From: a virus
Lineage: Duplodnaviria; Heunggongvirae; Uroviricota; Caudoviricetes
Length of the DNA stretch: 40,035 nt
Reading direction: 5' to 3' (one strand)
IMG/VR virus record: IMGVR_UViG_2851938318_000014
The position numbers were made by a program. Below are positions 1-3,000 of this stretch, in pieces. Each line of letters opens with the position of its first letter. Position 1 is the first letter of the stretch.

Positions 1-3000
1 ATGACGAAGAAAAAAGCACATAAACCTGGTTCAGCGACCATCGCGCTTAACAAGCGCGCCCGTCACGAATACTTTATCGAAGAAGAGTTCGAAGCGGGAC
101 TTGCCCTGCAAGGCTGGGAGGTTAAATCCCTGCGCGCAGGAAAAGCCAATATCAGCGACAGCTACGTCCTTCTGCGTGACGGAGAGGCATTTCTGTTTGG
201 CGCTAACATCACGCCAATGGCCGTGGCCTCCACGCATGTGGTGTGCGATCCTACCCGTACCCGCAAGTTACTTCTCAACCAGCGCGAACTGGACTCATTG
301 TACGGTCGCGTCAATCGAGAAGGCTATACCGTAGTGGCGCTCTCCCTGTACTGGAAAAATGCCTGGTGCAAAGTGAAAATCGGCGTCGCCAAAGGTAAAA
401 AACAGCACGATAAACGTTCAGATATCAAAGAACGCGAATGGCAGGTGGATAAAGCACGTATCATGAAAAACGCCCACCGTTAAACCTGCACTCCAATTAT
501 TGACCAGTTCCTCACCGCGCCTCCCTCTCCGGCGGCGCGAATGAACATCTTATTGGCTATCACATCCGACACAAATGTTGCCATCCCATTGCTTAATCGA
601 ATAAAAATCAGGCTACATGGGTGCTAAATCTTTAACGATAACGCCATTGAGGCTGGTCATGGCGCTCATAAATCTGGTATACTTGCCTTTACACATTGGG
701 GCTGATTCTGGATTCGACGGGATTTGCGAAACCCAAGGTGCATGCCGAGGGGCGGTTGGCCTCGTAAAAAGCCGCAAAAAATAGTCGCAAACGACGAAAA
801 CTACGCTTTAGCAGCTTAATAACCTGCTTAGAGCCCTCTCTCCCTAGCCTCCGCTCTTAGGACGGGGATCAAGAGAGGTCAAACCCAAAAGAGATCGCGT
901 GGAAGCCCTGCCTGGGGTTGAAGCGTTAAAACTTAATCAGGCTAGTTTGTTAGTGGCGTGTCCGTCCGCAGCTGGCAAGCGAATGTAAAGACTGACTAAG
1001 CATGTAGTACCGAGGATGTAGGAATTTCGGACGCGGGTTCAACTCCCGCCAGCTCCACCACTTTAAGAAGGACTACAACCGGACAGTAGCAATAAATACA
1101 GCCACTTACGGACACAAGCCAGACAGTAGTCGGACTGAAAAAAGACAAAAATATACACGTGAAATGCACGTGCACTTCTAAAAACCCCTAGTTATCACCG
1201 ACTGGGGTTTTTCAATTTGTAACTAAGGGTAACAAAAACACCCCCGTTTTTTTCATCTCACTCACCTTGATACTGTTTATTTGTACAGTTAAAAATAATA
1301 CTGTATACAAACACAGTACAGAGGGACTTTTATGCGTATTGAGATCTGCATAGCCAAAGAAAAAATGACTAAAATGCCAAACGGTGCTGTGGATGCGTTA
1401 AAGGAAGAATTAACCCGACGCATCAGTAAACGTTATGACGATGTAGAGGTGATCGTAAAAGCCACCAGCAACGATGGCCTTTCTGTTACGCGCACCGCCG
1501 ATAAAGATTCTGCAAAAACTTTTGTTCAGGAGACGCTGAAAGATACCTGGGAGTCTGCTGACGAGTGGTTTGTTCGCTAATAAACACGTAAATCGGTAAC
1601 GGCTGGAAATCATTCAATACTCGCACTATCGAAAGTTCACCAGCCAACCGCGACACGCTCTTACATACGAAGTGCCGCGCTTTCCTTAATAATTTTTTAG
1701 CAGTACTGTGTAAATAATGAGCGACCTAATCCATGCATGACGCGTAGTGCCTATTGTGCATCTTTCTGCGTCTCTTTTTACTGGACCCAAGCCAATGATG
1801 CTGGCGATACCATTCCCGCCAGGCCCACTTACAACAGTAAAATTCGGAGCTCTGCCTTTACATACAATACAATCTACCTAACAAATATCCCCCGGACATT
1901 GCAACACAAAAACCGGAGCCGGACTCCGGTTTTGTGAAGCTGTCGGGTTACTTCATCCCGCCAATATTTTCCCACCTCCCGTCAGCACGCAGGATTTGCA
2001 GCGGTCTTACCACGCACTGTATCTGCTTTTTATCCGCATCCAGTATCACCACCTGCGTGATTACCCTGTCCTGCTCCGGGATAATGCCATTCTCATCTGA
2101 CTCCAGGATGTCTGCCGGCCCCAGTCGCAGTTGTGCTGTAAGCGACTGCACGTGTTCACGGCCATCATGCTTTCCGCAACCACACAGACGCTGCATAAGT
2201 TTTTTTAGTATATTCATGTCATTCTCCTGTTCTGCCTGTATCACTGCCCACTTCATCCAGCCCCTTAACATCCTGCCACGGCCCGTCACCAAACCTGACC
2301 TGCAAATGCTGAAAAAAAACCTGAACCCGTGTGGCATCTTTGGGGTCAAGAAAGGTCAGTCCGGTGATGAGTGCGCCATCTGTATCCGGGAACCAGCCAT
2401 GGCTGTTTGTCTCAATAATGTTTCCCGGCCCCAGACGGAACCGTATTTGCGTCTCCCCCGGGTCGCCCTTCGGCCCCTGAGGTCCGGTTGCCCCCACCGG
2501 GCCAGCCGCACCTGTTTCTCCTTTCGGTCCCTGTGGGCCTGCCGGGCCTGCTGCACCGGTATCTCCCTTTGGACCCTGTGGACCTGCATTTCCCGTCAGA
2601 CCGGTCTCTCCCCGCTCTCCCCGCTCTCCCCTGTCACCTTTCGGCCCCTGCGGGCCTGCCGGACCAGCATTACCTGCCGGTCCCCGTTCGCCGGTTGCCC
2701 CGACAGGGCCGGTGTCACCGCGCTCTCCCTTATCACCCTTCGGCCCCTGAGGACCCGCGGGCCCCTGTTCCCCCTTTGGCCCGGGAGGTCCCACCACGGT
2801 GGGGATTCGGTTTACGGCCTCTTCCGCCGCTATCCTGCTTTGTTCCGCTGACTGTGCGCTTTCTGCTGACTCCCGGGCTTTTTCTGTTGCGGTCGTTGCA
2901 TCCCTGGCTGCATTACCGGCTGCACTTTCTGCCGTCTTTTTTGACAATTCAGCTTCTGCTGCACTTTGTGATGACTCACTGGCTTTTTGAGCGGCCGCAG

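Follow-up and report, generated by a model that had tools for sequence, protein, structure and literature searches.

The 3' end of ssrA, which encodes transfer-messenger RNA (tmRNA), is a recognised integration site of Shiga toxin (Stx) phages (PMC2323221). Among its described occupants is CP-1639, a cryptic Stx1 prophage of Escherichia coli O111:H- 1639/77, deposited under the title 'Bacteriophage CP-1639 and chromosomal integration site' (AJ304858.2; Creuzburg et al. 2005, Microbiology 151:941). Phage-borne homologues of dinI have been described in the Gifsy prophages of Salmonella, where they are preceded by terminator-like palindromes and are LexA-controlled, and where mitomycin C treatment leads to accumulation of the DinI homologue (Lemire et al. 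2011, PMC3121763). Here we analyse a 40,035-nt stretch of DNA (the window; IMG/VR record IMGVR_UViG_2851938318_000014), and in particular positions 1061-1580, in which the end of ssrA is followed by a hairpin, two predicted LexA boxes and a dinI-like gene. This region very probably forms the attL side of a CP-1639-type prophage, a cryptic lambdoid element encoding Stx1a, integrated in the ssrA 3' end.

Much of this locus is ordinary: the element has been published, ssrA is a known site for Stx phages, the tandem P4-type island is annotated in GenBank, and LexA-controlled phage dinI homologues have been described. Comparison with sequenced relatives establishes its anatomy and homologies, the relationships of attP, attL and attR, and the history of its insertion sequence (IS) copies. 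Added here are the attP core, rebuilt from a free phage; the identification of the 'integrase' 35 kb away as a neighbour's truncated gene; a history of IS629-linked deletion and then excision; and the dinI promoter-operator as a sharply bounded conserved cassette.

The ssrA junction and the attachment core

The window corresponds to positions 3168153-3208187 of RM9131 (NZ_CP028429.1, a bovine isolate of E. coli), in which the annotated feature coordinates all coincide with those of the window, and which is the only complete genome to give a 100% contiguous match across the junction at 36795/36796. Over the junction regions tested, the window and CP-1639 (AJ304858.2) are 99.9-100% identical, and the CP-1639 record already lists dinI, ssrA, intA and its 'remnant integrative element' in the order found in the window. 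Near-identical sequence and order, stx1AB, the IS629 copies and the remnant integrative element at ssrA together place the window in the CP-1639 type.

The ssrA gene lies at 698-1060 on the plus strand (ARAGORN, tag ANDENYALAA; Rfam RF00023, 295.8 bits; RM9131 annotation), with its mature 3' CCA at 1058-1060. As proposed in a preliminary description of the window, made from its sequence, this locus was compared with a prophage-free one. In the empty site (NZ_CM125667.1), ssrA has its own, different terminator. A P4-type integrase of full length (409 aa; Arm_DNA-bind_3, Phage_int_M and Phage_integrase domains) is encoded 165 nt downstream of ssrA, and beyond it lie a 138-aa open reading frame (ORF) and two large genes. 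The window is identical to the empty site through CCACCACTTT (position 1064, i.e. to CCACTTT) and diverges from 1065, where phage-specific DNA begins. Alignment of attL, attB and attR delimits an identity block (attL core, CGGGTTCAACTCCCGCCAGCTCCACCACTTT, 1034-1064, plus strand) that is common to ssrA, the attP of phage LMessi and the attR of intact relatives, with near-identity reaching back to 1026. The block measures 31-32 bp in LMessi attP, attB, attL and the attR of strain RM8385, as in elements that regenerate the gene into which they integrate, and it fixes the left boundary of the prophage.

The attP site is preserved in one contiguous piece in phage LMessi (PP925823.1), in the order Arm_DNA-bind_2 integrase, P arm of ~170 nt, core ttcggacaCGGGTTCAACTCCCGCCAGCTCCACCACTTTT, P' arm, terminator hairpin, two LexA boxes and DinI-family ORF (Pfam, 2.5e-22), followed by tail fibre genes on the opposite strand. 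Its P' arm is ~85% identical to the corresponding non-coding DNA of the window (1065-1266, plus strand). The integrated form is preserved in the O103 strain RM8385, in the order ssrA, dinI-like pseudogene, espK/espN/nleL, late and early genes, int, DUF4760 gene, displaced ssrA fragment and island integrase. The RM8385 int is of the Arm_DNA-bind_2 type and 92% identical to LMessi Int, and its displaced attR fragment reads GGGTTCAACTCCCGCCAGCTCCA-CTTTTTAG. This fragment (positions 3545-3575 of locus L003) lacks 3 nt, with CTCCA-CTTTTT against CTCCACCACTTTTT in attB, and is an imperfect repeat of attL. The PhiR12_4 record (PV340553.1) has the same order as RM8385, and an O157:H7 prophage carrying espM2/nleG/espW, which we take to be Sp17 of Sakai, has an identical type of ssrA-dinI junction.

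In this phage family, attP is laid out as int, P arm, copy of the ssrA 3' end (through CCA and CTTT), P' arm, terminator, DinI-family gene under predicted LexA control and, on the opposite strand, tail fibres. Crossover within the identity block rebuilds an intact ssrA from phage DNA, with a new, phage-borne terminator, and integration places the dinI/tail-fibre end beside ssrA and int at the far end, beside the displaced ssrA fragment of attR. The preliminary description had correctly recognised the prophage end next to ssrA as the tail-fibre end (tail fibres at 1948-3541), and had treated this orientation as anomalous. It is instead the expected outcome of integration by an integrase of this lambda-type, ssrA-specific family, as the LMessi attP and the intact RM8385 prophage with its attR show, because attP has int on the P-arm side and dinI and the tail fibres on the P' side; it is the rule for this phage family. 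The accompanying generalisation, that elements at ssrA carry their integrase next to the gene, holds for the island integrase in prophage-free strains and fails for the phage family, whose int lies at the far end.

No second copy of the ssrA 3' end was found in the window (exact and mismatched patterns, k-mers down to 11, and fuzzy 24-31-mers with up to 5 substitutions), as the preliminary description had reported, nor in 50 kb of the near-identical strain E2863 (24-31-mers, up to 5 substitutions). A direct repeat of the core at both prophage ends is thus absent from the window and present in RM8385; likewise, a cognate tyrosine integrase beside attP is absent from the window and present in LMessi, RM8385 and PhiR12_4. 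The attachment core and boundaries, which the preliminary description had left unresolved, are accounted for by an attL core at 1034-1064 and a deleted attR.

Within the P' arm, tandem 11-bp repeats (ATACACGTGAA/ATGCACGTG) lie at 1153-1172, and their motif is unique in the window. The tandem repeat ATGCACNTNAAATGCACNTG is found in both attP arms, and the P arms of LMessi, PhiR12_4 and RM8385 each have two copies of the motif; the repeats at 1153-1172 are probably arm-type Int sites. They are followed on the plus strand by a Rho-independent terminator-like element (1186-1212), consisting of a stem-loop at 1186-1207 and a TTTTT tract. The hairpin is kept in four related elements despite sequence changes, with one covarying AU/UA pair, and is a candidate phage-supplied terminator for the ssrA precursor that would insulate the dinI promoter.

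The dinI-like gene and its predicted LexA operators

The dinI-like gene (1332-1580, plus strand, 82 aa) reads away from ssrA and converges with the late operon; it is annotated as dinI in CP-1639 and as DinI-like in RM9131. Its product aligns with the whole of the Pfam PF06183 profile (positions 1-63 of 63; E = 1.2e-19; 70.8 bits, the cut-off being 24.2). In phmmer it also matches E. coli DinI of known structure (1GHH; E = 7.7e-13). The acidic C-terminal helix is kept, with TWESADEWF aligned to TWESADDWF of 1GHH. This helix of DinI is described as mimicking DNA in RecA binding (Voloshin et al. 2001, as cited in PMC3121763). By homology, the dinI-like product would bind RecA filaments and modulate their co-protease activity. 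A literature search for experimental work on prophage DinI-like genes in Stx-producing E. coli gave nothing specific.

Upstream of the gene lies a sigma-70-like promoter on the plus strand (-35 TTGATA at 1267-1272, -10 AAAAAT at 1291-1296, 18-nt spacer), identified by consensus match only. LexA box 1 (TACTGTTTATTTGTACAGTT, 1271-1290, core 1273-1288) lies within this promoter, between -35 and -10, and LexA box 2 (TACTGTATACAAACACAGTA, 1299-1318, core 1301-1316) just downstream, starting 3 nt after -10. Both predicted boxes have a perfect CTGT-N8-ACAG with an AT-rich spacer, and differ from the 20-mer TACTG(TA)5CAGTA by 4 and 3 mismatches, respectively. Of the bare pattern CTGT-N8-ACAG, the window has 5 copies where 0.42 would be expected; the three outside the boxes have GC-rich spacers. 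The boxes were also scored with a heterology-index-like matrix built from 23 published E. coli SOS boxes, the scores being approximate; box 1 scored 3.8 and box 2 scored 2.7, in the range of strong SOS boxes, and the next best 20-mer in the 40 kb scored 10.2. The hairpin (1186-1207), the two tandem boxes (1271-1290 and 1299-1318) and the dinI-like gene reading away from ssrA (1332-1580) are thus all present, as the preliminary description had recorded.

The promoter and operators behave as a portable cassette. Homology to the dinI modules of thousands of E. coli prophages starts exactly at the -35 element (1266/1267), and the same start is found in the free phages mEp460 and cdtI and in Stx2c and Stx2k phages. 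The module is flanked, in mEp460 and phage cdtI, by the integrase region on one side and by tail-fibre or toxin cargo on the other. When seven elements are aligned, the -35, both half-site pairs and the whole 16-bp core of box 2 are invariant, and the flanks upstream of -35 are unrelated; the boxes and promoter are kept across phages with unrelated att/int modules. An invariant operator amid unrelated flanks argues for selection on the dinI operator.

The dinI-like gene is best regarded, from its sequence, as an independent transcription unit under predicted LexA control. LexA would repress the dinI promoter through the two operators and keep it silent in uninduced lysogens, since the promoter is overlapped by two strong predicted operators. 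On DNA damage, RecA-mediated LexA cleavage would switch dinI on, and the DinI-like protein would tune RecA co-protease activity. Read-through from ssrA past the phage terminator may possibly add to dinI expression. The predicted operators lie ~210-250 bp from the crossover core, within the P' arm, a placement kept in free phages of the family. It is conceivable, if very unlikely, that LexA occupancy, or SOS-induced transcription away from the core, may modulate assembly of the Int/Xis intasome and so gate excision and integration by SOS, apart from the phage repressor.

Between dinI and the tail-fibre genes, the window has ~370 bp with pseudogene fragments (1591-1656 and 1858-1946). The same interval (1581-1947) is a cargo hotspot in relatives, holding espM2/nleG/espW in O157:H7, espK/espN/nleL in O103 RM8385 and cdtABC in phage cdtI, and only pseudogene fragments in the window. 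The 3' half of dinI and ~140 nt downstream (1440-1720) are ~80-85% identical to the ecpE-ykgJ intergenic region, which 5242 of 5426 E. coli genomes have; this chromosomal copy resembles a degenerate dinI 3' half that has lost 22 nt. Nakamura et al. 2021 describe this homology at prophage ends, term it attB-in-PP_2 and attribute it to capture from the chromosome (PMC8112680). The dinI relic suggests that transfer may also have run the other way, from prophage to chromosome.

The far end of the prophage and its IS629 history

The integrase-like gene noted ~35 kb from ssrA in the preliminary description does exist (36479-37759, plus strand, 426 aa), but it is not the phage's own: it is a chimera in which a phage ORF is fused in frame to the truncated P4-type integrase of an adjacent ssrA island. 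Up to 36795, the ORF is a phage early-left gene found in many lambdoid prophages. From 36796 on, it matches the empty-site island integrase at 100% identity, entering 266 nt into the gene; this N-terminally truncated integrase (36796-37759, plus strand) lacks Arm_DNA-bind_3 and keeps Phage_int_M. The CP-1639 record annotates the truncated integrase as intA, within the 'remnant integrative element' (AJ304858.2). The 426-aa ORF was thus ruled out as a phage integrase.

In CP-1639 and most O111:H8 genomes, an IS629 copy lies exactly between the phage ORF and the island integrase, without target duplication and with unrelated flanks (gattacttca|TGAACCG at one end, CGGTTCA|tatggtgtTGATCCCC at the other). 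Unrelated flanks and the lack of a target duplication point to an IS-mediated adjacent deletion. On the most parsimonious order of events, IS629 inserted in the phage early-left gene and the adjacent deletion then removed int/xis of the phage together with attR and, from the island integrase that once abutted ssrA, the first ~258 nt; attR and the phage int are missing because of this deletion. Later excision of the IS in the strain of the window took 8 more nt, fusing the phage ORF in frame to the truncated integrase and leaving the footprint at 36795/36796, which shows an 8-nt loss and a TGA microhomology. The IS is lost in three genomes with three footprints: precise in SD134209, with 4 nt missing on the phage side in 7-55 62A, and with 8 nt missing on the island side in RM9131 (the window). 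The three footprints appear to represent independent IS629 excisions at one site in O111-type strains. Such footprints are consistent with IS-excision-enhancer activity, which occurs in enterohaemorrhagic E. coli. IS629 is still present at this site in most relatives. According to Ogura 2007, no right junction could be identified for the O111 ssrA Stx1 phage (PMC2323221), in agreement with an IS629-associated deletion of attR.

The remainder of the prophage is likewise decayed. The window starts with smpB (1-483), and the tail-fibre genes on the minus strand (1948-3541, RM9131 annotation) form the distal end of the late operon. An IS629/IS1203 copy on the plus strand (12845-14154) lies beside a deletion that truncates the tape-measure gene and has removed the gpT, gpG and major tail protein genes and most of gpU. 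A second IS629/IS1203 copy (33395-34708, plus strand) lies between cII and the truncated recombinase gene; IS629 abuts cII in the interval 33078-34708. The cI/cro/N immunity region is absent, the recombinase gene is partly lost and the lysozyme gene is a remnant. With the immunity region (cI, cro, N) missing and int deleted, the prophage has neither repressor nor integrase. The stx1AB genes are intact (23528-24754). Rfam models place STnc100 downstream of stx1B (23240-23449, minus strand); C4 antisense RNA, with its a1/b1 targets, and isrK fall a short way upstream of the antirepressor gene ant (28039-28237, minus strand). These features are P1/P7-type immI-like control elements inside a lambdoid prophage.

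The cargo of the island remnant (37798-40035 and beyond; positions 44517-46235 of locus L001) includes a 138-aa ORF that matches no family and two larger proteins, one of 582 aa with Response_reg_2 (PF19192) at its N terminus and one of 572 aa with HEF_HK/HATPase_c. The two larger proteins form an atypical two-component-like pair that lies next to ssrA in many E. coli. A PADLOC search of the island cargo gave no match.

Alternative readings and comparison with known systems

Two alternatives concern the boundaries of the prophage. If the integrase-like gene at 36.5-37.8 kb were the prophage's own, the true att site would lie beside it and the adjacency to ssrA would be due to chance. The ORF does stand at the end of the early-left operon and on the same strand, where a lambdoid int would be. 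However, its sequence from 36796 on is 100% identical to an integrase 165 nt from ssrA in prophage-free strains, it is of the P4 type (Phage_int_M) and lacks an arm-binding domain, IS629 parts the integrase from phage DNA in CP-1639 and most O111 strains, and the real integrase of the family is another protein, with an Arm_DNA-bind_2 domain. The empty-site comparison refutes this reading, to which we attach a negligible probability. The terminator, LexA boxes and dinI might alternatively form a separate small chromosomal island or relic between ssrA and the prophage, as could be suggested by the core-chromosome homologue of the dinI 3' half and downstream DNA (ecpE-ykgJ) and by the finding of only pseudogene fragments between dinI and the tail-fibre genes. 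This is extremely improbable, given that the block is contiguous with int/attP and tail fibre genes in the free phages LMessi, mEp460 and cdtI, and is absent from the empty site.

Two further alternatives concern the LexA unit. By analogy with the Gifsy dinI-antirepressor-irsA operons, which are LexA-controlled and preceded by terminators (Lemire et al. 2011, PMC3121763), dinI could be the first gene of an antirepressor operon, with a role in SOS-triggered induction and not in RecA modulation, and the lack of a terminator after dinI would fit such an operon. We consider this very unlikely, since no Gifsy-like antirepressor ORF is supported downstream of dinI: there is no conserved plus-strand ORF after it, a 66-aa ORF (1737-1937) matches no family, the downstream DNA consists of pseudogene fragments, and the immunity region of the prophage is lost; in LMessi, mEp460 and cdtI, moreover, convergent genes directly follow the DinI-family gene. 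Both CTGT-N8-ACAG sites could also be fortuitous or no longer functional, in a prophage that is heavily degraded and with a dinI-like gene that is a pseudogene in RM8385. Here too the chances appear slim, because both boxes rank among strong SOS boxes by score and are the only such sites in 40 kb, and because they overlap the promoter and have half-sites that are invariant in seven elements amid diverging flanks.

Four points weigh against the assignment of the region to the attL side of a CP-1639-type prophage with a LexA-controlled dinI. LexA control at this locus is a prediction from sequence. The phage int of the window is gone, so that its assignment to the LMessi/RM8385 type depends on a P' arm that is ~85-90% similar and a core that is identical. 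The order of events at the far end, adjacent deletion and then excision, is a parsimony argument. Finally, the description of the dinI-like gene as a moron, put forward in the preliminary description, is borne out by its own promoter and the upstream terminator and not by its downstream side, where no convincing terminator was found (fold against shuffled sequences, z = -0.63).

Here, the erasure of att sites and integrases by IS629 locks a Shiga-toxin prophage in place. Unaided, such a prophage should be able neither to excise nor to transfer, which bears on the stability of stx1 in O111 lineages. The conserved double LexA operator predicted before DinI-family genes of phages is a good candidate for a point of SOS cross-talk linking RecA with other prophages in the same cell. 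The locus illustrates the tandem build-up of elements at one ssrA site, and otherwise matters mainly for annotation.

Compared with known systems, the locus is closest to CP-1639, with which it shares ssrA, dinI, tail fibre, late and early regions including stx1, and then a remnant element with a truncated intA, as well as IS629 copies. Unlike the window, CP-1639 retains IS629 at the boundary of the phage ORF and intA, and its intA is longer by 8 nt; unlike CP-1639, the window has an extra IS-linked deletion of tail genes. LMessi, PhiR12_4 and the RM8385 and O157:H7 prophages also have the core, terminator, double LexA box and DinI-family gene next to ssrA, and the P' arms of ssrA-integrating lambdoid relatives are ~85-97% identical to that of the window. 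In contrast to the window, LMessi, PhiR12_4 and RM8385 retain int, and PhiR12_4 and RM8385 have kept the attR end as well; from the O157:H7 prophage, the integrase end is missing. The LMessi DinI-family gene is a paralogue different from that of the window, and the cargo between dinI and the tail fibres includes type III secretion system effector genes in O157 and O103 and none in the window.

The P4-type (CP4-57-like) ssrA islands have their integrase immediately downstream of ssrA in the empty site, reading away from it; this arrangement belongs to the neighbouring island remnant (36796 on) and not to the prophage. Chromosomal dinI of E. coli has its own SOS box and is LexA-regulated. The dinI-like product shares with chromosomal DinI (1GHH) its fold family, size and acidic C-terminal helix, whereas it is a diverged, phage-borne protein whose gene has two tandem predicted LexA boxes instead of one. 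Like the Gifsy dinI loci, the window has a dinI homologue preceded by a terminator and by LexA boxes, here predicted; the Gifsy loci, however, are situated 1.3 kb downstream of the replication genes, with an antirepressor gene and irsA after them, whereas the gene of the window sits beside attP with no downstream partner seen.

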